From: an uncultured archaeon
GTDB lineage: Archaea; Asgardarchaeota; Lokiarchaeia; Sigyniarchaeales; Promethearchaeaceae
Assembly (NCBI GenBank): GCA_964426185.1
Contig: CAYRPF010000055.1
Location: 1-22,139 of the forward strand
Length of the DNA: 22,139 bases
Direction of reading: 5' to 3'
The notes beneath the pieces were generated by a model. That model ran no database searches. It was not told the origin of the DNA and worked only from the letters and a program-made list of their open reading frames with translations. The position numbers and the translations under genes are program-made. This document shows positions 2,777 through 21,475 of this stretch, in pieces. Numbering within the stretch: the first letter of the stretch is position 1; every line of letters begins with the position of its first letter.

Positions 2777-4315
2777 CTAATATAATTTAGATAGTGTTTT
2801 TTGTAATTCTTCTATTTTATAGGGCTTAACCAGACTTCCTGAAAAACCATAATCTTGATAGTGGACAATCACTTTATCAGTAGCATAACCACTGGAAGCG
2901 ACTGCCTTAACAGAAGGATTCAATCTTAAAAGTTCTTGTAACGTAAGAACCCCTCCTTCTCCACCCTTTATTGTTAAATCTAAAATGACTACTTTAAATG
3001 GATCATGAGCACGCATGTGTTCCTTATAAATCTGCACTGTTTCTTGTGAATTTTTAGCCGTGTATACTTCTAAACCTAATTGAGTCAACATCTTCTTCAA
3101 AATTTTCCTAACTATTTCTTCATCATCCATAATCAAAATTTTTCCAGAAAATTTCGTTTCCGTATGGAACATAGGTTCTTCTTCCACTTGAACCATTGGT
3201 TCTGCAGGTAAATAGATTTTTATTTTAATTCCTTGTCCCAATTTTGAATGAAGTTGGATAAATCCAAAATGTTGATCAATGATATTCTTCACCGTTGAGA
3301 AATTAACATCTTGGCTAATATACTCACTTTGGAAAAACGGATCAAAAACATGAAGTATTTCTTCTTCTGGAATTCCAACGCCGTGATCTTGAAATTCTAT
3401 TAAGATATAAGACCCAGGATTATATTTAAATCGGTTGTTTTCATCTAAGGTTACGTTTGAAGCTGAAATCTCAATTGAGCCTCCAATTGGCATAGCTTGC
3501 ACACTGTTAATAATAATTTGATGGAATAGCAAACTAATCTGGGTCTTATTAAGATAAACCGGCCAAAGATTGTCATCAAAATTTATATTTGCAGTAATGT
3601 TGCTTCCAGAGAGAGTAAATTTGACAATTTCATTTAAAAGTTCAGGAAATTCAACCAATTCTTTCTCTTTTTGTTCTTCTGCAGAAAAAGTGAGTAATTG
3701 CTTAGTCATTTCGCGTGCATTTTCTATTCCTTTCTCCGCATCTTCAAGTAAATTCACCAATTCCCCCTCAGAGGGTATCTCAAACTTAGCTAAACTTACA
3801 TTTCCTAAAATAGTTGTAAAGATATTGTTAAAATCATGAGCCAATCCACTTAGTAGGCGAGACATTGATTTTAAGCGCAAATTTTTTTGTAATTCTTGAT
3901 TTATCAAATATTTTTCAGTATAATCGAATAAAAAAATAGTGAACCCTTCGATTTCATGTGAAGAATTTGTTTTTTTTAGGGGTATGATTGAAACTTTAAC
4001 GAAATGTTCTTCTCTTTTTTGATCAATAATGGTAGTAGGATATTCTAAAATCAACGGCTCTTTAGTTTTGAGAATTTTCTCAATATAGAATCCTAAGCTG
4101 GTTTTTTGATTATTTTGATAGAAATTTAGTGTTTCAAAAAGGTTTATAGTTTTCAAGTCCAATTCTGACATGCCTAAAATTGTATAAATATTAGAATTGC
4201 ACGTTTGAACCTCTCCGAACAAATCTGTTATTATTACCCCTTCATCCAAAGTTTCTAATATTATTTGAAGATTTAAATCTATTTCAAAATCCATAGATAT
4301 CAATAAACACTTCAT
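2777..4315 (-). CDS. Cytoplasmic hybrid sensor kinase (PAS-HisKA-HATPase-REC, CckA-like) with a degenerate G2 box
   Basis: PAS start ILETLDEGVIITD; H-box GLAHDFNN; N-box IIINSVQAM; G1 DHGVGI; F-box FDPFF; receiver MDDEE, ILDL, SSGY, VKPY. The start may be the ATG at 4294. Confidence 0.9.
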   Translation of the reverse strand: MKCLLISMDFEIDLNLQIILETLDEGVIITDLFGEVQTCNSNIYTILGMSELDLKTINLFETLNFYQNNQKTSLGFYIEKILKTKEPLILEYPTTIIDQKREEHFVKVSIIPLKKTNSSHEIEGFTIFLFDYTEKYLINQELQKNLRLKSMSRLLSGLAHDFNNIFTTILGNVSLAKFEIPSEGELVNLLEDAEKGIENAREMTKQLLTFSAEEQKEKELVEFPELLNEIVKFTLSGSNITANINFDDNLWPVYLNKTQISLLFHQIIINSVQAMPIGGSIEISASNVTLDENNRFKYNPGSYILIEFQDHGVGIPEEEILHVFDPFFQSEYISQDVNFSTVKNIIDQHFGFIQLHSKLGQGIKIKIYLPAEPMVQVEEEPMFHTETKFSGKILIMDDEEIVRKILKKMLTQLGLEVYTAKNSQETVQIYKEHMRAHDPFKVVILDLTIKGGEGGVLTLQELLRLNPSVKAVASSGYATDKVIVHYQDYGFSGSLVKPYKIEELQKTLSKLY

Positions 4316-6055: not shown

Positions 6056-7960
6056 CTACTTCGATTCTCCTCCGGTTTTTAGAACGATTGCATTAACCGG
6101 GCAGACATTTATACATAAATTGCATGCGATACAGCTGTTCTGATTGATTACAAATTTCCCATCATATTTCACTATAGAAGGACACGAAAATTCGTATAAA
6201 CAGGTTCCGCAGCCAGTGCATTTATCTTGATCGATATATACCTTCTTTTTACCTTGCTCCAGAATATCTTGGTTCCTGAATATGTCAATAACGCAAGTAC
6301 CGGTAAAAATTACGACAGACGGCCCTTCATAAGCCAAAGCTTCTTTGAAAATCTTGATATTATCTTTAATATTATCTACGGAAACGGATTTGACCCACTT
6401 TACGCCTAAACCCCGAACTACTTGTTCAATATCAATTTGTTCTTGTTCTGGCGCAATTCGTTCTGGTGAACTAGCAGTAGGTTGCCCCCCGGTCATAGAG
6501 GTTAAGTAGTTATTTAAAATTGCCACCGTTAGTTTTCGCTTGTGAAGCACGGCATCGAGTAGAGGAGGAATTCCCGCATGGAAAAACGTACCATCACCAA
6601 TAACTGCAACTACATGTTTATCTGTGGTCACCGAGAATCCAAGAGCTGTTCCAATACCCCCACCCATGCAAAGCCAGAAATCTCCCACTTGAACAGGAGG
6701 TACTTGCCCTAAAGCATAGCAACCAATATCACTGGGGATAATATCGTCGTAATTAGTGGCTTTCTTAATAACATAAAAAGCACCACGATGCGGACAACCA
6801 TCACATAGTCTTGGTAAAGTACGGGGTATAATCAGCTCTTTTTGAGTTAATATTGGGGCGAATGGTAAGGTGGATTTGATTTTCTTCACAAAGGTCTCAG
6901 GATCGGTGGGATCACCCTTAATATGCTCGAAGGGAATAGCTAAGAATTCTGCGACCAAACGGTTTTCTTGGGGAACTTCCAATTCCTTCTTGCCAAACAC
7001 CAAATGATCTGTCTTATTCTTGCCAATCATGGCCAGAAATTCAGTTTCCAAGTAAGATTCCAGCTCTTCCACAAAGTAGAGATACTTATACGGTTTTATT
7101 GCTGAAAGAATCTGTTCTTCATTTAATGGATGGATGGCTGAAATCTTTAGTATCGGTAAATTCAACTTATAGTATTCGTTGAGGTATGCCACTACAGGAT
7201 AAATCGCTCCATGGGTAATTATTAATTTATCTTGTGATTGCGGTTCCCCCTTCGGCTGCATAATCCGGTTTAAGGCATTAAACTGTGAGTCTACTCGAAT
7301 TTGTTCCAATTTTGCGTGCACGTTTTTGTGAAGGATATATCGAGCCGGAATTTGATAATTCACATCTCGGAGGAATTCCCCCTTGTGTGGTAATTTTTCT
7401 TCAATTGGGATGTACTCTACTTCGCTGGTATTCAATGATGTAAAATTTGTGAGCCGTAATATACACAATTGATTGTACTTTTCGGAGACTTCATAAGCTA
7501 CTTTAATCATATCAATGATTTCTTGATTTGTGGCGGGTTCAAAAATGGGAAGATGAGCAAATTTTCCCCAAAACCTCGAATCTTGTTCATTTTGACTAGA
7601 TAAACAACCTGGATCATCCACCACAACCAATAACATACCGCCCAAAGTTCCAAAATAGGCAAAAGCCATCATAGGATCAGAAGCAACGTTCAACCCCACA
7701 TGCTTCATAATTACTGCCGAACGGACTCCGCTCATGGATGCAGCTGCACTGAGTTCAAAAGCAACTTTTTCATTTATGGCAAACTCAAAAAATATCTGCC
7801 CTTTTTTGTGGAGCTGATATAACTTGGTTTGAATTTCGGTACTGGGAGTTCCCGGATATGCTGCAGTTACACCTACATGAGCTTGCAGAAGACCTTGAAC
7901 AACTGCATGATTTCCGATGATCAATTTTTTTTTTTTAGTAATAGTTTCGGAATCTGACAT
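6056..7960 (-). CDS. iorA: Indolepyruvate:ferredoxin oxidoreductase alpha subunit (TPP, two [4Fe-4S] ferredoxin motifs)
   Basis: YPGTPSTE, NEKVAFE, KHVGLNVASDP, DDPGCLSSQNEQD, LCDGCPHR, DIGCY, TPP motif GDGTFFHAG...LNN..TSMTGGQ, CTGCGTC...CP and CIACNLCINVCP. Confidence 0.96.
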   Translation of the reverse strand: MSDSETITKKKKLIIGNHAVVQGLLQAHVGVTAAYPGTPSTEIQTKLYQLHKKGQIFFEFAINEKVAFELSAAASMSGVRSAVIMKHVGLNVASDPMMAFAYFGTLGGMLLVVVDDPGCLSSQNEQDSRFWGKFAHLPIFEPATNQEIIDMIKVAYEVSEKYNQLCILRLTNFTSLNTSEVEYIPIEEKLPHKGEFLRDVNYQIPARYILHKNVHAKLEQIRVDSQFNALNRIMQPKGEPQSQDKLIITHGAIYPVVAYLNEYYKLNLPILKISAIHPLNEEQILSAIKPYKYLYFVEELESYLETEFLAMIGKNKTDHLVFGKKELEVPQENRLVAEFLAIPFEHIKGDPTDPETFVKKIKSTLPFAPILTQKELIIPRTLPRLCDGCPHRGAFYVIKKATNYDDIIPSDIGCYALGQVPPVQVGDFWLCMGGGIGTALGFSVTTDKHVVAVIGDGTFFHAGIPPLLDAVLHKRKLTVAILNNYLTSMTGGQPTASSPERIAPEQEQIDIEQVVRGLGVKWVKSVSVDNIKDNIKIFKEALAYEGPSVVIFTGTCVIDIFRNQDILEQGKKKVYIDQDKCTGCGTCLYEFSCPSIVKYDGKFVINQNSCIACNLCINVCPVNAIVLKTGGESK

Positions 7961-12876: not shown

Positions 12877-13884
12877 TTATACAGATGCAATTAGAGTCGG
12901 ATCAACAAACCAGTCAATAAAACTTGAAATTGTTGCACCACTCGGAATATTTGGTGAATCTAAACTAATAAGATCATTTAAATCAACCATTTCTTGCACG
13001 AATAATTCCATTTGGGCAATATCCATCTGATATACATATCCAATATTTGCCATGGCAAGTTCAGCTTGTTCTTCAGAAAGATTCATCTTTTCGACGGCAA
13101 TTTGCTTGGCTTCATCCCAATGTGTCCATATCCATTCAGTTGCTTCCTTATGAACCTTCAATATTTTCAAAGTGATCTCAGAATTAGATTGTAAGAAAGA
13201 ATTATGTGCCGCAATAATGCAACAGGGATGATTTGGCCATACTTCACTACTAAGGTAAAGATATTTTCCAATATTATATTCTAAACCTTTAACGCAATAT
13301 GGTTCCCATGCAACGTAGCCATCAATTGAACCCGCTTGCAGGGCTAAAACCATATCAGACGGAGACATTCCTTCAGTTAAAGTAATGTCATCATATGTTA
13401 AACCAGAATTGTTTAATATCATGCTAAGAATGAAATCTTGCATATTATGCCTTGATGGAACCGCAATATTCAAACCTTTCAAATCTACTCCCGAAGTTAT
13501 CGCAGGGTCGTTTTTCACAATTAGTGCAGAGCCATTTACATTAACTCCGGCTAAAACTGTTATGTTGGCAGCTTGATTTGTAAACCGATGAAACAGAGCA
13601 GGCGCAAATCCAAAATAAGCTAAATCTATACCGCGATTGGCTGCTTCAAAAGCGGTCATTACTGCACCACCGTTTTCAAAAGCGACGCTTTCAATACTCA
13701 ACCCTTCTTGCGTATATAATCCCTGTTCACGGGCAATAAAGAAAGCTAATTGATGAAGATCACCTTCTAGATAGCCGATACTAACATCTCGTGAACCTTC
13801 ATTAAGGTAATAGATGCCAATTCCTAATCCAGCAACAACTATAATACCTAGCAAGCTAAATGCCAAAGATTTTCGTGAGATCAT
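12877..13884 (-). CDS. ABC transporter substrate-binding protein, SsuA/TauA/NrtA (NMT1-like) family
   Basis: True start taken as ATG 13884 (MISRKSLAF plus TM anchor, GGAG upstream); IGYLEGDLHQLA, FENGGAV, GSIDGYVAWEPY, WPNHPCC; 335 aa. Confidence 0.9.
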   Translation of the reverse strand: MISRKSLAFSLLGIIVVAGLGIGIYYLNEGSRDVSIGYLEGDLHQLAFFIAREQGLYTQEGLSIESVAFENGGAVMTAFEAANRGIDLAYFGFAPALFHRFTNQAANITVLAGVNVNGSALIVKNDPAITSGVDLKGLNIAVPSRHNMQDFILSMILNNSGLTYDDITLTEGMSPSDMVLALQAGSIDGYVAWEPYCVKGLEYNIGKYLYLSSEVWPNHPCCIIAAHNSFLQSNSEITLKILKVHKEATEWIWTHWDEAKQIAVEKMNLSEEQAELAMANIGYVYQMDIAQMELFVQEMVDLNDLISLDSPNIPSGATISSFIDWFVDPTLIASV

Positions 13885-14056
13885 AATGATTTTTCTCCAT
13901 ACAATAGATAGTAAGTATCTTAAATATCTTGAAACAATATCCATATTTGAACCATTGTGTTCACGGATCATCATAAATTCCAAAAGTGTTATATACTCAT
14001 GTCGGTTTATAGAATTTAGTTCTGAATAAGTTAAGATAACCTTAGTGTGACTGCCA

Positions 14057-14686
14057 ATGAAACCCATCGAAATAATAAATTCAAAACCAAAAAAGCACTT
14101 GCACACGACGGTCTCTCCAAATACATATAAAACTCTTAAAAAATTGGCGATTACATACGGATCAATTTCCAACGTTATCGAAGAAGCGCTTAAACTATTA
14201 AAGATCCGGGTACATATGCTTGATAATTTGAAGAAAAGTGAACTTGATGAATACCAGCTCTGGCATTTAATGCGGACCGATTTCAATATGCTGGCAGTCG
14301 GTCGTACTACTTTTCTCTCATACATCGATAAAATCCCCACGGAACCACAGGAAAATAATAATTGTGTTGAATTGATTGAGTGGTTTTATGACAATCGCCC
14401 TATTAACCGCCTCACACTGTATGAGATATTAACCGCCATTAAACAGATTTGGATTGCGGGAAATTATTTCTGGAAGATACAAGTCAAAGCTCAAGATGAA
14501 AAATCCCAAAATGAATTTTACGCTAAGAAATTCGAAATGAGCTTTTTTTATCATTTTAGCGAGAAAACTTATGGGGTTTACTGGAGCGAATATTTCAAAA
14601 CAGTGCTGGCTAAACCGCCGCTAAATTGTAAATGTGATATTACATTACGAAACGAGAGTTTTTACATGGTGATAGAGCAAACATGA
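14057..14686 (+). CDS. Putative transcription regulator: N-terminal ribbon-helix-helix plus a C-terminal alpha/beta (possibly V4R-like) domain
   Basis: KKHLHTTVS (ribbon), PNTYKTLKKLA, YGSISNVIEEALKLL. Overlaps the permease start (ATGA) and is divergent from the binding-protein gene. Confidence 0.6.
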   Translation: MKPIEIINSKPKKHLHTTVSPNTYKTLKKLAITYGSISNVIEEALKLLKIRVHMLDNLKKSELDEYQLWHLMRTDFNMLAVGRTTFLSYIDKIPTEPQENNNCVELIEWFYDNRPINRLTLYEILTAIKQIWIAGNYFWKIQVKAQDEKSQNEFYAKKFEMSFFYHFSEKTYGVYWSEYFKTVLAKPPLNCKCDITLRNESFYMVIEQT

Positions 14687-16479: not shown

Positions 16480-17325
16480 ATGGGGAATGGAATGCCAAGT
16501 GTGGTTGTTTACACCAAATCTAACTGTCAGCGTTGCCATCATTTAACCCAATGGTTGCAACTCCATGCAATTTCTTTTTCGGAAAAATCTCTTGATGATC
16601 CCATCACTTTTTCGCAAATTTCTAAAGATCCCAACTATACAAATGAACATTGTAAAAAAACACCCTGCAAAATCTATCCACCTGTAATTTATTTCCCAGA
16701 AACTCAAAAATATATACAAAACAAATTATTCAACATCAATGGGTTGCGAACGGATTATCTTTCCCGACTTCTTCAAGTTCAACACATTTCCACCCATTCT
16801 CCACCAGAAACCAGGAATCCACTATCCTTCACGCCGAAATTATGCGCGAACGAATTAGTGCAAAAATTACTCCAGAAATATATCTTGGCAATTGGAATTT
16901 CTCGAATAGGAGGAGATATGCTTTATTGCATACAAATTGATAAATCTTTAAATTTAGACTTGATATCTCAATTTATCTGCGCGTTATCTATGTTTGGGGA
17001 AGAGAATTTAGGAAAAATTGACCGGATATTAATCCAAGGTCTAAAAATCGAAATGAGTATGGTGACGCGCTATGAATTAATCTTTTTTGTCTTGTTCCGC
17101 GCTCATATGGTACAAGATCATTTGGATGAAGAATCTACTAAATGTTTGAAGAAGTTCTACTCGCAATTTCGTCATGACATAGAAGCAAAGCATACGAACC
17201 GAGTTCTATATGAAAGTTTTGACAAAGAAATGTGCTTAAGTATTCAGAATTATTTAGTGAGGATTGGTGTTTTAGAATGTGTCGATTGTTCTTTAGAAAT
17301 TCCTATCCTACGGGAACGGAAATAG
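16480..17325 (+). CDS. Glutaredoxin/NrdH-like CxxC domain fused to a longin-like domain
   Basis: VVVYTKSNCQRCHHLTQWL and IYPPVI (cis-Pro region); Pro/Ser/Thr linker; longin-type LISQFICALSMFGEENLGKIDRILIQG; C-terminal CVDC. The start may be 16492. Confidence 0.65.
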   Translation: MGNGMPSVVVYTKSNCQRCHHLTQWLQLHAISFSEKSLDDPITFSQISKDPNYTNEHCKKTPCKIYPPVIYFPETQKYIQNKLFNINGLRTDYLSRLLQVQHISTHSPPETRNPLSFTPKLCANELVQKLLQKYILAIGISRIGGDMLYCIQIDKSLNLDLISQFICALSMFGEENLGKIDRILIQGLKIEMSMVTRYELIFFVLFRAHMVQDHLDEESTKCLKKFYSQFRHDIEAKHTNRVLYESFDKEMCLSIQNYLVRIGVLECVDCSLEIPILRERK

Positions 17326-17384
17326 AAACAACCCAAAATCTTTTTATTTCATAGGATCTTCTTAACCTTATCTGATTTCAGTTA

Positions 17385-17481
17385 GGGCTCATTGTATAGT
17401 GGTTATAGGAAATTAAAAATTTCTGACCAATACGCCTGCTTGACGTGCAGGAGGTCTCCAGTTCAATCCTGGATGAGCCCA
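17385..17481 (+). tRNA. tRNA-Val(GAC) with a 24-nt intron in the D-arm
   Basis: Acceptor stem GGGCTCA/TGAGCCC, anticodon arm CCTGC-TT-GAC-GT-GCAGG (anticodon 17442-17444), T-arm TCCAG-TTCAATC-CTGGA, discriminator A, CCA not encoded; 73 nt after splicing. Confidence 0.95.
17407..17430 (+). other. Non-canonical tRNA intron (position 22/23) with a strict BHB motif
   Basis: Central 4-bp helix GGTT/GACC, 3-nt bulges ATA and AAT, inner stem GGAAATT-AAA-AATTTCT, outer pair GT/AC. Confidence 0.88.
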
Positions 17482-17630
17482 TTCTTTCTTTTAATATAAA
17501 CAACAGATTTAATTTTGTTTAACCAATTTTTACTCTTTAGAGTTATTTTTCATTTTAATACTAAAGCAAAAAAATAAGAAGGACTTCAACCAAATTTTGA
17601 ACTACAGAAAAAAAATAGGTAGAATATCTA

Positions 17631-20462
17631 ATGAAAAATTTCGTAAAAATTGCTCAAGAATTACTTGACTTAGAAGAATTTTCCGCTGATTGTTATGAAC
17701 TCTTATTAATCAAAGGAAAATTAACAGTTGGAGAAATATGTGCCTATAAAAAGCTAGATGAAGAATCAGAATACAACCATGTTCTAGAAGTTTTAAATAA
17801 TCTAGTAGCCAAGGGATTGGCTCAAAAGATTCCAAAAGCAAAAGGATTAATAGATGTATACATAGGAATTGCACCATTTGAAGGATTTACCATAAAACTT
17901 CATGAATTATCAAGTCAAATGATGAAAAATCGAAAATATGTTGAGAAAGGAATTGAAGAATTACGAGATACTACAAAAACAACCATAGATACTGTAAAAA
18001 ACGATATAGAGGGAATTCTTGGAGAAAAAGCACAAGAAATAAAAGATTTATCCCAAAAACAAGCAGAGAACATCTCATCTGCAGTTGAATCCACTATATC
18101 AGAGTTGGAATCCAGAAAAAATTCACATATCTCCGCAATCCAATCCAATATGGCAAAATCAAAGGCGGATTTAGAAGAAAGTTTAACAAAGTTGACTCAA
18201 GATTCTTTAGGAGCAATCGAGAAAACACAAACTGAAACTATCCAATTTACAGAAGAAAACAAAAATTCATTGATTAACGGAATCAAAGAAAAAGATGGAA
18301 TAATGCAAGCTCATTTTGAAGAAGAAAAGAACAATTATCAAGAATCCTTACAAGGAACCTCAGAATCTATAATCAAACTGCATTCGATAAATGTAAATAA
18401 AATTTCCGAAAATGTCGACCTTTGGCACCAGCAAATTTTGACCAGCTTAGATAAGATGGAGCAAGATACCATCATTTTCACTGATAAATTCGAAAAAGAA
18501 GCGATTAACACTTTAGAGCAAGGATTAAAAACTGCAGTTTCTGAAGTTAACAATCAAAAAGATACAGCAATTGCAGGTATTACGAAATCTTCTAAAAATG
18601 CTACCGAAAAAATTGAAAATCAGATTAATGATAATCTCTCCAAAATCCAGACAGTTTTACAAGAAAATTTTACTCAAATATCCACTAAAATGGAAGATAA
18701 TGATGCAAAATTTGCAGAAAAGATCAACACGACTTTAGGAAAAATCAAGAATTCAATTGACACCCATGAAACAGAATTTAAAGAATCGGTAGAGAAAGAT
18801 TCTGAAAACTTGACATCAACCCTAGAAAAATCAGTGGATTCCTTTGAAAATCAAATTATTAATCAGAAAGGCACATTGTCAAGAAGTTTTGATAATAATT
18901 TTTCCCAACTATCACAAGAATTGGATGAAATGATTGCTAAAATTCAAGAAGTTGGTGAACAGCAAAAAGGGGTGCTAAATTCTACCATGGAATCTATCAA
19001 GGAACAAATGGAAACCCAAACCACTCAACTTATATCTACGGCTAGAAATGCAGTGACGAACTTTAATTCAGTTTTGTCGGAGAAATCAGAACAATTTCTA
19101 TCAGAACTTTCCAAAAGGGTGTCAGAATTCGACTCAAAGATTGCCACGGAATCAAGCCAAGTCTTGGAAACTTCGAAGCAAAACACCAACGAAATTTTGT
19201 CCAGTATTAAATCTACGAATCATATAATCCATTCTCAGTTTTCGAACACTCAAAATTCATTTTTAGCAGAATTTCGCACAGAATTTGAAAACTTAATGAG
19301 TTCTTTTACGAAGGAACTACAAAGCGAAGTCAAATCATTTGAATCAGGCTTAGCTAACGCTGTTTTAGGAATGAATAAGGAAATTCAGACTGTTTCAAAG
19401 ACGGTTAAAAGTAGTACGGGCAAAATTAAGGTAAACAATATTAAAAATGTCAAAAAGGAAATCGATTCTTTCAAAACCACTTTATCAGATGGTACCAAAA
19501 CTATGAAGCGGGAAATTGCTGCCACCATTGAAACAAGCGTTCAAAAAGAAAATATTTCCGCCGATAAAAACAAAAAAGCCATATCAGAAACGCTACAACA
19601 AAACATTGGCGCAATCGATCGCGGTTATGAAGAAAATAAGAAAATTATTGAATCCTTGGCAACCAGTTTAACCGAAAATCTGCAACAAACATCAGATAAG
19701 ATTGGAAAATTCACCAACAGCATGCTTTCTGAAACTGAAACATCAATTTCCGAATCAACTCAACAATTTGCTTCAGAAATGTCCCAAACAACTAAAAATC
19801 TGCAGAAAAATATGCAGCAGACTTTAAAAACACTGGAAACAAGCTATGAATCGGTAACTAATACGGTGGGGAAACAATCATTAACTGAATATGAAAAAAC
19901 TGGAGAAAAATTCTTCAATGCTGTGGATATGCTTGAAAAAGTGGTTTATAAACCCATCCAATCTTCTATTGAATTGGCAGATAATTACCGCCATGAATTT
20001 GAAACGGTATGGGATGATGTAAAAAACATGGAATTGTTAAAAGCGGAAGGAACTTGGCAAATTGTGACCCAAAATTCTATCATGGCTTTTTTGGACGCCA
20101 TGGTCAAACGAACAAAACTGCATTGTTTAATTGTAGTTCCTGACATGAAATTACTCCCGGTGAAGGCCATTGAATCCACAAATATTCGCCAAAAAATAAC
20201 GATCGCATGTAAAATCACTGATAGAAAATTAGCGGAACACTTAGTGGAGAAAGATAATATCGATTTGCGGGAAGTTTCTGATTTCCCAGTTAATGTGTTC
20301 GGAGCAAATCGAGATCAAGAAGAAGCTTTTTATGGTCCAGTAACAGAGAATTTGAATGAAATGGTTTGCACAATCACCCAACAAGATGAATTAATTAAAG
20401 TAATCGCTGAAATGTTATCCTCATTTTATCGAGGTCGCTCAAAGAAGTTTGTTACTGAATAA
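17631..20462 (+). CDS. TrmB-like protein: winged HTH, about 660-aa hendecad helical rod, and TrmB-type C-terminal domain
   Basis: wHTH YELLLIKGKLTVGEI...VLNNLVAKGLAQK...YIGIAP; about 60 consecutive 11-mers from residue 108; C-terminal TWQIVTQNSIMAFLDAMVKRTKLHCLIVVP resembles the start of the TrmB effector domain. Confidence 0.75.
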   Translation: MKNFVKIAQELLDLEEFSADCYELLLIKGKLTVGEICAYKKLDEESEYNHVLEVLNNLVAKGLAQKIPKAKGLIDVYIGIAPFEGFTIKLHELSSQMMKNRKYVEKGIEELRDTTKTTIDTVKNDIEGILGEKAQEIKDLSQKQAENISSAVESTISELESRKNSHISAIQSNMAKSKADLEESLTKLTQDSLGAIEKTQTETIQFTEENKNSLINGIKEKDGIMQAHFEEEKNNYQESLQGTSESIIKLHSINVNKISENVDLWHQQILTSLDKMEQDTIIFTDKFEKEAINTLEQGLKTAVSEVNNQKDTAIAGITKSSKNATEKIENQINDNLSKIQTVLQENFTQISTKMEDNDAKFAEKINTTLGKIKNSIDTHETEFKESVEKDSENLTSTLEKSVDSFENQIINQKGTLSRSFDNNFSQLSQELDEMIAKIQEVGEQQKGVLNSTMESIKEQMETQTTQLISTARNAVTNFNSVLSEKSEQFLSELSKRVSEFDSKIATESSQVLETSKQNTNEILSSIKSTNHIIHSQFSNTQNSFLAEFRTEFENLMSSFTKELQSEVKSFESGLANAVLGMNKEIQTVSKTVKSSTGKIKVNNIKNVKKEIDSFKTTLSDGTKTMKREIAATIETSVQKENISADKNKKAISETLQQNIGAIDRGYEENKKIIESLATSLTENLQQTSDKIGKFTNSMLSETETSISESTQQFASEMSQTTKNLQKNMQQTLKTLETSYESVTNTVGKQSLTEYEKTGEKFFNAVDMLEKVVYKPIQSSIELADNYRHEFETVWDDVKNMELLKAEGTWQIVTQNSIMAFLDAMVKRTKLHCLIVVPDMKLLPVKAIESTNIRQKITIACKITDRKLAEHLVEKDNIDLREVSDFPVNVFGANRDQEEAFYGPVTENLNEMVCTITQQDELIKVIAEMLSSFYRGRSKKFVTE

Positions 20463-20517
20463 CTTAGCAAATTTTAATTTCTAAGTTGTTTTTTTTTGTT
20501 TTCCATTTTTGTTTTCC
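20461..20517 (+). terminator. Hairpin plus oligo-T terminator of the 943-aa gene
   Basis: AACTTAG-c-AAATT-tt-AATTT-CTAAGTT (20461-20487), followed by G, T9 and a duplicated TTTTTGTTTTCC. Confidence 0.55.
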
Positions 20518-20540
20518 GTTATTCGTTTTATAGTCCATAT

Positions 20541-20610
20541 TCAACTACATTCTTACACATTCAGCATAAATTAAACTAATTTAGCCATCTTCAGCATAAT
20601 TCAGCAAAAT
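20541..20610. repeat. Degenerate 10-bp tandem repeat, seven units, consensus about TCAGCATAAT
   Basis: Units: TCAACTACAT, TCTTACACAT, TCAGCATAAA, TTAAACTAAT, TTAGCCATCT, TCAGCATAAT, TCAGCAAAAT. Confidence 0.55.
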
Positions 20611-20674
20611 TCGGTCTTGAGATACTTGTGTTTCCAAAACCTCAAATATCATGGTTGTTCACTAAATATAGAAG

Positions 20675-21475
20675 ATGAACCTCAAGGCTAACGAGATTAC
20701 TTTGCTGGAGTCATTATCCTTTAGTGCATGGCCAGCCCATGAATTTTCTCTTTTTGATGGCTGGGTTCTTCGATTTGCAGAGGGGTATACTAAGAGATCC
20801 AATTCTGTAAGCCCACTCTATCCTGGAGCCATTCCACTGAATTCCAAAATCGAGTATTGTAGCCACGAGTATACTTCTCGTGGGTTACCTTTGATTTTCA
20901 AACTAACAGATCTACCACACGCCTTGGAAATCGATAAATGGGCAGTAGACAAAGGCTTTGAAAAACTGGATGAGACTAGCGTTCAGACCCTTTCTCTAAT
21001 TAACATCGACCCCATCCTGAAATCTACCCCTCAACGTACTCAAAATATACAATGGAAGCCAACATTAGACAAAAAATGGCTTGACTCGTTTATAGCTTTA
21101 AATCCTCAAAGGGGATTTAACCCAGCGGAGCAGTCAGCAATGGTGGGCATCTTGCAGTCGATCCAACCCCCACACTGGTTTTATCAAATTTATTTGAATG
21201 ATGATGAAAATAATCAATGCGTGGGTGCTGGACTGGGAGTTCTTCAAGTGGGATATTACGGGATCTCCGACATCGTTGTCCACCCCAACCACCGGCGCCA
21301 AGGAATTGCCACTCAATTGATTCAAGGGATGCTATCCCACGCCCGCCAAGAAGGGGGACATACTGCATACTTACAAGTGGTTAAATCAAACGTACCAGCG
21401 GTAGACCTATACGCAAAACTCGGTTTCTCAGAACTTTATCGTTATTGGTACCGTAGGGAGCTTGGAAAACAATAA
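20675..21475 (+). CDS. GNAT family N-acetyltransferase (tandem GNAT type)
   Basis: N-terminal AWPA...DGWVLRFAEGYTKRSNSV; motif A IVVHPNHRRQGIA; motif B AYLQVVKSNVPAVDLYAKLGF; YRYWYR. Confidence 0.92.
   Translation: MNLKANEITLLESLSFSAWPAHEFSLFDGWVLRFAEGYTKRSNSVSPLYPGAIPLNSKIEYCSHEYTSRGLPLIFKLTDLPHALEIDKWAVDKGFEKLDETSVQTLSLINIDPILKSTPQRTQNIQWKPTLDKKWLDSFIALNPQRGFNPAEQSAMVGILQSIQPPHWFYQIYLNDDENNQCVGAGLGVLQVGYYGISDIVVHPNHRRQGIATQLIQGMLSHARQEGGHTAYLQVVKSNVPAVDLYAKLGFSELYRYWYRRELGKQ

Follow-up and report, generated by a model that had tools for sequence, protein, structure and literature searches.

A giant hendecad rod of fixed length in a TrmBL2-family protein, from a multi-copy family found across the Asgard archaea

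TrmBL2 (PF0496 / TK0471; structures 5bpd, 5bpi, 5box and 5bqt), a chromatin protein of the Thermococcales, consists of a winged helix-turn-helix (wHTH), a C-terminal domain and, between them, a long amphipathic helix through which it dimerizes, and it forms tetramers on DNA (PMC4877046). TrmB (3qph, 2f5t), a sugar-sensing regulator from the same archaea, shares with the protein described here the wHTH and the PLD-like subdomain. We analyzed a 22,139-nt stretch of DNA, referred to below as the window, from an uncultured archaeon of the Promethearchaeaceae (contig CAYRPF010000055.1 of assembly GCA_964426185.1, positions 1 to 22,139). One of its genes encodes a 943-residue protein with the end domains of TrmBL2 in the same order and, between them, a very long helix built on a strict 11-residue (hendecad) repeat, which we call the rod. 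This protein is a TrmBL2-family member with a giant hendecad rod of fixed length. No known prokaryotes are more closely related to eukaryotes than the Asgard archaea, to which the source organism belongs, and the organization of their cell interior is little understood. The gene and the parts of its product are as follows:

17631..20462, + strand: whole gene, 943 codons plus stop
17631..17876, + strand: residues 1-82, TrmB-type wHTH, of which the last residue, Pro82 (PFEG), is invariant across the family
17877..18953, + strand: residues 83-441, hendecad helix, N-terminal arm
17952..19931, + strand: residues 108-767, 60 in-register hendecads, with the limits given in an earlier note on this DNA
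18954..18971, + strand: residues 442-447 (G-E-Q-Q-K-G), candidate turn in the middle of the rod, where core positions are weak and a helix break is predicted at 446-451
18972..20024, + strand: residues 448-798, hendecad helix, C-terminal arm, of which the final ~40 residues align with the TrmBL2 dimerization helix
20025..20459, + strand: residues 799-943, PLD-like domain related to that of TrmB/TrmBL2, lacking an HKD motif

The protein begins and ends with a TrmB/TrmBL2 domain, as the earlier note, made from the DNA letters and their translations alone, had supposed, and this is borne out by profile, Foldseek and structure-alignment matches. Family profiles were needed to recognize them. For example, the wHTH alone scored 22.8-24.9 bits against Pfam PF01978 (cut-off 25.6), the C-terminal 174 residues searched as a single sequence had no Pfam match, and single-sequence PDB searches with either end returned nothing useful. 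An N-terminal profile built from 85 relatives matched TrmBL2 5bpd (E 7.9e-15) and TrmB 3qph (E 7.2e-14) far above every other winged-helix protein, and 77 of the 85 relatives matched PF01978 at E <= 0.001. For the C-terminal 174 residues, an AlphaFold 2 (AF2) model based on an alignment of 142 relatives reached a predicted local distance difference test (pLDDT) score of 89.8. A Foldseek search with this model returned TrmBL2 chains as the best matches (E 1.9e-9), ahead of TrmB and the PLD superfamily, and VIA-align superposed it on TrmB 2f5t with Z 16.2 (root-mean-square deviation 2.2 Å over 130 residues), on TrmB 3qph with Z 15.5 and on TrmBL2 with Z 15.0. The C-terminal sequence profile also placed TrmBL2 first (E 0.012), with the pairing helix within the alignment, and PF11495 was matched by 35 of the 142 relatives. 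Identity between the C-terminal domains of TrmBL2 and the rod protein is 11-15%.

TrmB has, in addition, a C-terminal sugar-binding barrel and a short helix, whereas the rod protein stops at residue 943 without the sugar-binding subdomain, its match to TrmB covering chain residues 110-243. Because the protein ends after the PLD-like domain, its layout is that of TrmBL2 and not that of TrmB; it shares with TrmBL2 an extended wHTH, an amphipathic connecting helix and a PLD-like C-terminal domain. Hence, the rod sits exactly at the place of the dimerization helix, the position that the earlier note had assigned to it, and the C-terminal profile alignment spans that helix. The difference lies in the helix itself. 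TrmBL2 has ~260 amino acids and a pairing helix of ~40 residues, and coats DNA as tetramers (PMC4877046), whereas the rod protein has ~715 residues of helix between P82 and its first strand (residue 801), compared with ~30-40 in the dimerization helix of TrmB/TrmBL2. The PLD-like domain is the best-conserved part of the protein (62-82% identity to orthologues), and P837, R894, E897 and E898 are near-invariant in this domain across the family.

A recount reproduced the 60 consecutive 11-mers that had been read between residues 108 and 767, with zero indels, as well as the figure of 46 out of 60 with I, L, V, F or M in first place. The proline-free stretch from residue 83 to 774 was likewise confirmed (Pro occurs at 68, 82, 775, 837, 843, 886 and 903 only). 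Hydrophobic residues occupy positions 0, 4, 7 and 8 of the 11-mers in 46, 32, 27 and 29 of the 60 repeats, respectively, and, counted from position 4, these are the canonical a/d/e/h positions of a hendecad core. Fourier analysis of hydrophobicity, the check proposed with the original observation, placed the peak at 3.67 residues and not at 3.5 (power 771 versus 12), and in 500 shuffled sequences the highest power averaged 63 and never exceeded 137. All 110-residue segments between residues 81 and 795 peaked at 3.64-3.69 residues, and the 11/3 phase drifted by ~60 degrees across the whole rod (coherence 0.93). Tandem Repeats Finder detected no 33-nt array in the DNA of the gene, and the periodicity is therefore structural rather than the product of a recent DNA repeat. 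A motif scan of the 943-residue protein found no Walker A and no HKD motif, and a transmembrane helix is excluded because the highest 19-residue Kyte-Doolittle mean is 1.15, in agreement with the earlier statement that ATPase motifs and transmembrane helices are lacking. The same 11-residue a/d/e/h repeat forms near-straight, stiff rods in the E-G peripheral stalk of A/V-ATPases and in the tetrabrachion stalk (PMC3293630, PMC6131620), although the former measures ~100 residues, the latter is four-stranded and extracellular, and neither carries TrmB-type domains.

An 11/22-residue amphipathic periodicity is also shared by exchangeable apolipoproteins and perilipins (PF01442), and the rod could accordingly be read as a giant lipid-binding 11/3 helix, like those of apolipoproteins, perilipins or synuclein, that lies on or coats membranes or lipid particles, with membrane contact possibly following the opening of a closed hairpin. 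PF01442 (Apolipoprotein A1/A4/E) is the best Pfam match of the rod, at 66.3 bits against a cut-off of 90, and scores above that cut-off in two orthologues (P0003 and P0005, 97.7-97.9 bits); the polar face of the rod, which is 38% Ser, Thr, Asn and Gln, would also suit such a helix. However, the match is explicable by common periodicity alone, and the two kinds of helix differ in other respects. Apolipoproteins have proline punctuation and class-A charges, whereas the rod has no Pro-punctuated 22-mers (zero Pro and 3% Gly) and no class-A pattern, with 12 and 8 Lys/Arg against 16 and 8 Asp/Glu at boundary positions 1 and 3. The rod is also acidic (net charge -28), and its exact length conservation and the lockstep of its arms, described below, indicate a defined rod and not a flexible coat. 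We consider a lipid-binding role very unlikely, and no membrane-binding element was found in the protein sequence.

The length of the rod is conserved to the residue while its sequence changes. The source genome belongs to the same GTDB genus as Candidatus Harpocratesius repetitus, whose orthologue is also 943 residues long and aligns with the window protein without gaps under three gap penalties (54% identity overall, 46% in the rod, 82% in the C-domain). Genes neighboring the two loci are 65-84% identical, and with 46% identity and no indel, the rod is therefore fast-evolving in sequence and unchanged in length. Moreover, exact rod lengths recur among representatives of a subfamily that have less than 50% identity to one another: 709 residues in five, 684 in five, 749 in four and 859-863 in eight. 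These results suggest that rod length is fixed by selection and, hence, that the rod acts as a spacer or strut.

To compare the two halves of the rod, we used an alignment of 11 sequences. Symmetry of indels in a first MAFFT alignment was dropped as evidence, given that gap positions shifted among three gap penalties at ~30% identity, and distances between conserved landmark residues (P82, Q412, K457 and W794) were used for this reason:

Window protein and Harpocratesius orthologue (n=2): N-arm (P82-Q412) 330 residues, tip (Q412-K457) 45, C-arm (K457-W794) 337
Four Promethearchaeota orthologues: N-arm 319, tip 27, C-arm 326
Three other orthologues: N-arm 319, tip 45, C-arm 326

The C-arm exceeds the N-arm by 7 residues in nine of nine orthologues, while total rod length varies between the three groups (712, 672 and 690, respectively). 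In the window's lineage, one hendecad was added to each arm, within residues 265-295 and within 500-699, and one orthologue group carries +33 and -33 inside the N-arm, with a net change of zero. All arm indels are of 11 or 33 residues, as expected from the proposal that rod lengths would differ by multiples of 11. Lockstep of the arms is required by a hairpin with a fixed apex, and a fold-back of the rod is therefore favored. The same balance is found in a paralogous subfamily marked by the motif A[FW]KAL...GKHKK, where the N- and C-arms on either side measure 411/410, 305/304, 312/311 and 261/260 residues in four members, including the source genome's own paralogue, with rods that differ by up to 300 residues.

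Conservation is also arranged around the center. The midpoint between P82 and W794 is residue 438, and the mirror center of conservation lies at about 436. When the window protein is compared residue by residue with its Harpocratesius orthologue, the profile of identity shows mirror symmetry, with the best center 2 residues before the midpoint in a scan of ~214 residues (r 0.41, P = 0.015 for an 11-residue smoothing window; r 0.57, P = 0.0045 for 22 residues; block shuffle). Across the family, Pro makes up 0.4% of rod residues overall, and more of it than expected lies no further than 12 residues from the midpoint (20 observed versus 8.7 expected; central-bin P = 0.008). Midpoints also show a weak excess of an [FWYLM]-G-[KR] motif (6 observed versus 1.9 expected), mostly in one clade. 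The midpoint was also considered as the site of the strongest Gly/Pro cluster, which was rejected, being true of only 10% of 91 relatives, and the Pro enrichment alone reached significance. A single 105-residue tandem duplication, centered on the former midpoint, separates relative P0005 from its nearest kin, with a GLGNNPN loop at the junction and a jump of ~120 degrees in hendecad phase. The duplication in this protein, encoded on a 4,014-bp ENA contig, spans residues ~419-523, and the Gly of the FGK motif is lost in the first copy.

An antiparallel homodimer offers another account of this symmetry. Two continuous 700-residue helices would form a bipolar rod of ~100 nm with a composite head at each end (the wHTH of one chain with the PLD-like domain of the other), which could bridge distant ligands such as DNA segments. 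Such a dimer accounts for the mirror symmetry of conservation around the midpoint, and it also accounts for the unbroken central phase and for the center free of Gly and Pro in the closest orthologue. Nonetheless, its ends would stay flush wherever an indel falls, such that neither lockstep around central landmarks nor the exactly central motif of the paralogous subfamily is required, and the Gly/Pro loops and central phase break of some relatives suit a turn better than a dyad. We regard this arrangement as unlikely.

The extended model of the earlier note, a parallel two-stranded right-handed hendecad coiled coil of ~100 nm, would have a pair of wHTH domains at one end and, opposite them, a pair of PLD-like domains, and would tether DNA to something 100 nm away. 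It follows from the way in which TrmB and TrmBL2 dimerize, via the amphipathic helix that the rod replaces (PMC4877046), and two-stranded right-handed hendecad coiled coils do exist, for example in the A/V-type ATPase peripheral stalk (PMC3293630, PMC6131620). The continuous phase along the entire rod is also consistent with it. However, a parallel dimer predicts unrelated halves, yet arm lockstep, mirror-symmetric conservation and midpoint Pro enrichment are seen, which makes it distinctly unlikely.

Structure prediction adds some detail to a folded rod. The full-length AF2 model (pLDDT 58.6) breaks the helix at residues 446-451, 280-286 and 599-603, and in this low-confidence model, the latter two breaks are symmetric around residue 442 and coincide with the extra hendecads. 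Matched breaks ~159 residues from the apex recall an SMC-type elbow. SMC, Rad50 and MukB have long, length-matched helices that pair antiparallel within one chain and bring both termini into one head. The likeness is one of geometry only, as these proteins have an ABC ATPase head, a hinge or zinc hook and interrupted heptads, whereas the rod protein has none of these, is hendecad throughout and shows no detectable homology to them. A complex prediction for residues 1-230 with 655-943, run without controls to see whether folding back brings the head together, scored 0.27 against a mark of 0.32 and counts neither way.

Several observations weigh against a fold-back. The hendecad phase is unbroken through the proposed turn, at the coherence of 0.93 given above, which a loop would not need, and the tip difference of 18 residues (11 + 7) between orthologue groups nearly keeps the hydrophobic stripe in phase. 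Gly and Pro are both missing from the midpoint of the Harpocratesius orthologue, where Ser and Asn stand at the sites of Gly442 and Gly447. When smoothed hydrophobicity and charge were tested for mirror correlation, none of nine sequences peaked at the midpoint, and the mirror center of conservation is not the global best in the other two orthologue groups. In addition, relative P0014 (21% identity) is either off lockstep or not reliably alignable, the full-length model has the low pLDDT already mentioned, and the oligomeric state, helix orientation, ligand and location of the protein are all things that we infer. Taking both sides together, sequence features point, with moderate confidence on our part, to a fold-back rod of ~50 nm (at 0.15 nm per residue) with two arms of ~350 residues. 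Of the two lengths offered in the earlier note, 100 nm extended and 50 nm folded, the evidence thus favors the second and disfavors the first.

The wHTH of the window copy raises the question of what the protein binds. Its label as a DNA-binding protein appears doubtful, because its recognition helix is the most acidic among 85 relatives and the wing Arg is absent. Specifically, the turn and recognition helix (residues 42-60) have a net charge of -5, the lowest of the 85 (family median -1, TrmBL2 +1), and the orthogroup carries a four-residue acidic insertion in the recognition segment. The wing Arg is present in 60 of the 85 relatives and is replaced by Val in the window protein; the wing carries a net +3, and the wHTH as a whole -3. 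To judge by these residues, the fold is that of a DNA binder, and the reading surface is not. In Sso10a, a winged helix is likewise set on an antiparallel coiled-coil rod, and this protein bends and bridges DNA as an architectural factor (PMC4941522), although it has ~95 residues and a rod of a few nanometers, and lacks both a PLD-like domain and a hendecad array.

These results also bear on whether the protein is an ordinary, sequence-specific transcription regulator of the TrmB type with a long linker. Both TrmB-family end domains are present, and a 1,794-residue relative is named "sugar-specific transcriptional regulator TrmB" in one database. A rod of 700 residues with fixed length, an acidic recognition helix and missing wing Arg, the absence of the TrmB sugar-binding subdomain and the lack of a conserved target operon adjoining the gene all speak against such a role, which we judge extremely improbable.

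We propose that the protein has a structural, non-enzymatic role and descends from an ancestor of the TrmBL2 type (wHTH, pairing helix and PLD-like domain), whose pairing helix would have expanded to ~715 residues of continuous 11/3 amphipathic helix. The two ~350-residue halves would most likely pair antiparallel within one chain, with a turn near residues 436-447, and form a stiff rod of ~50 nm, one end of which would be a head composed of the wHTH and the PLD-like domain. Across the orthogroup, the rod tip is not conserved, and the PLD-like domain is conserved most, followed by the wHTH; function therefore most likely resides in the head, and the rod would serve as a spacer. The conserved head would thus be the working end, and probably self-associates like TrmBL2 and binds a conserved ligand. 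The ligand would have been DNA in the ancestor and may be a protein in the window copy, because the DNA-reading helix has turned acidic. Taken as a whole, this fold-back strut explanation is, in our estimation, evenly poised between being right and being wrong.

A search of the C-domain profile against 1.84 billion representatives (E <= 0.001) matched 175 clusters, 89 of which also have the N-terminal wHTH. Linkers in these 89 two-domain representatives range from 52 to 1,506 residues, and almost every 66-residue segment of them is hendecad rather than heptad. A single hendecad phase runs from end to end (coherence >0.8) in 30 of 86 family rods, the longest of which has 1,071 residues (coherence 0.99). 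All named representatives are Asgard archaea (Promethearchaeota, Helarchaeota, Thorarchaeota, Freyarchaeota and Sigynarchaeota), and the nearest ESM Atlas clusters are Promethearchaeota; the database labels of the named representatives are "hypothetical," "helix-turn-helix domain-containing" and, once, "TrmB." The family was matched in 296 of 301 genomes drawn from across the phylum of the source organism and in 69 of 70 genera (E <= 1e-5), mostly with 2-7 matches per genome and mostly in open frames of 600-1,800 codons. Full-text literature searching found no paper on the TrmBL2-headed rod family. The family is pan-Asgard and multi-copy, and apparently without prior description in the literature searched.

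The source genome has six family matches, three of them short (open frames of 231, 277 and 446 codons) and three long. The long forms are the 943-residue protein and two paralogues:

L004:1351-4503, contig 81: 1,050-residue paralogue of the same architecture, with a hendecad rod at about residues 116-885 and a TrmB wHTH scoring 30 bits
L005:2601-4958, contig 76: 785-residue paralogue with a wHTH, a linker of ~250 residues (3.5-residue heptad periodicity near the N-terminus) and a PLD-like domain in mid-protein

The 1,050-residue paralogue carries the conserved basic-aromatic motif KRGSAWKALLFGKHKK at the exact midpoint of its rod, between arms of 411 and 410 residues. In the 785-residue paralogue, the C-terminal tail of ~300 residues is rich in Lys, Pro and Ser and probably disordered.

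Being present in 296 of the 301 genomes in several copies each, the family is a strong candidate for a structural element of the Asgard cell interior. Its rods rank among the longest unbroken hendecad arrays, reaching ~1,070 residues at a coherence of 0.99 in one relative. As the family reuses the chassis of TrmBL2, a chromatin protein, it may connect the chromosome with some other component at a defined distance. The more specific role of nucleoid scaffold or DNA-membrane tether, put forward in the earlier note, is a guess. It is a long shot, but one worth stating, that TrmBL2-headed rods of subfamily-fixed length (~18, 50 and 60 nm in the source genome) constitute an ATP-independent internal skeleton. 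If so, the rods would serve as molecular rulers, by which the chromosome or other structures are spaced or anchored with respect to the membrane or cytoskeleton, and the skeleton would be a prokaryotic functional forerunner of eukaryotic lamina-like or tethering coiled-coil systems. In our appraisal, the rod protein is soluble and has no cofactor, and its expression and direct imaging are feasible.

The gene is monocistronic, with spacers of 305 nt upstream and 212 nt downstream, and ARAGORN detected no tRNA in window positions 17000-20800. Genes for an NMT1-type binding protein, an ABC permease and ATPase and a glutaredoxin-longin fusion lie upstream, and a GNAT acetyltransferase gene lies downstream. 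The remaining genes of the window are housekeeping genes (Y-family polymerase, hybrid kinase, indolepyruvate oxidoreductase, PanE-like reductase and sulfotransferase). No conserved operon partner was found, as the upstream genes are shared with the locus of the same-genus Harpocratesius only, and not with five more distant orthologous loci. The glutaredoxin-longin gene (16480-17325) has a longin-like relative at one distant orthologous locus (L009:1363-1869, 36% identity over 109 amino acids), 2 kb upstream of the rod gene on the other strand. This recurrence near the rod gene may be due to chance, because longin and roadblock genes are numerous in Asgard genomes.

In the orthologue group with 903-residue proteins, paralogous genes of ~131 codons lie next to the rod gene, in the opposite orientation to it, and occur on either side of it wherever the locus extends far enough:

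L007:166-561 and 3625-4020, strand opposite the rod gene: ~131-codon flanking genes
L008:3158-3565 and 6605-7000, strand opposite the rod gene: ~131-codon flanking genes
L010:6597-6992, strand opposite the rod gene: ~131-codon flanking gene

The products start with MAE..KE.KI, followed by a hydrophobic stretch, and may be small membrane proteins; such genes are absent beside the rod gene of the window. Elsewhere in the window, the open reading frame of the NMT1-type binding protein (12877-14340, - strand, GTG start) overlaps, over its first ~95 codons, the beginning of a 209-codon open reading frame on the + strand (14057-14686). The latter has no Pfam match and is 84% identical in Ca. Harpocratesius, and the binding protein probably starts at a later codon.

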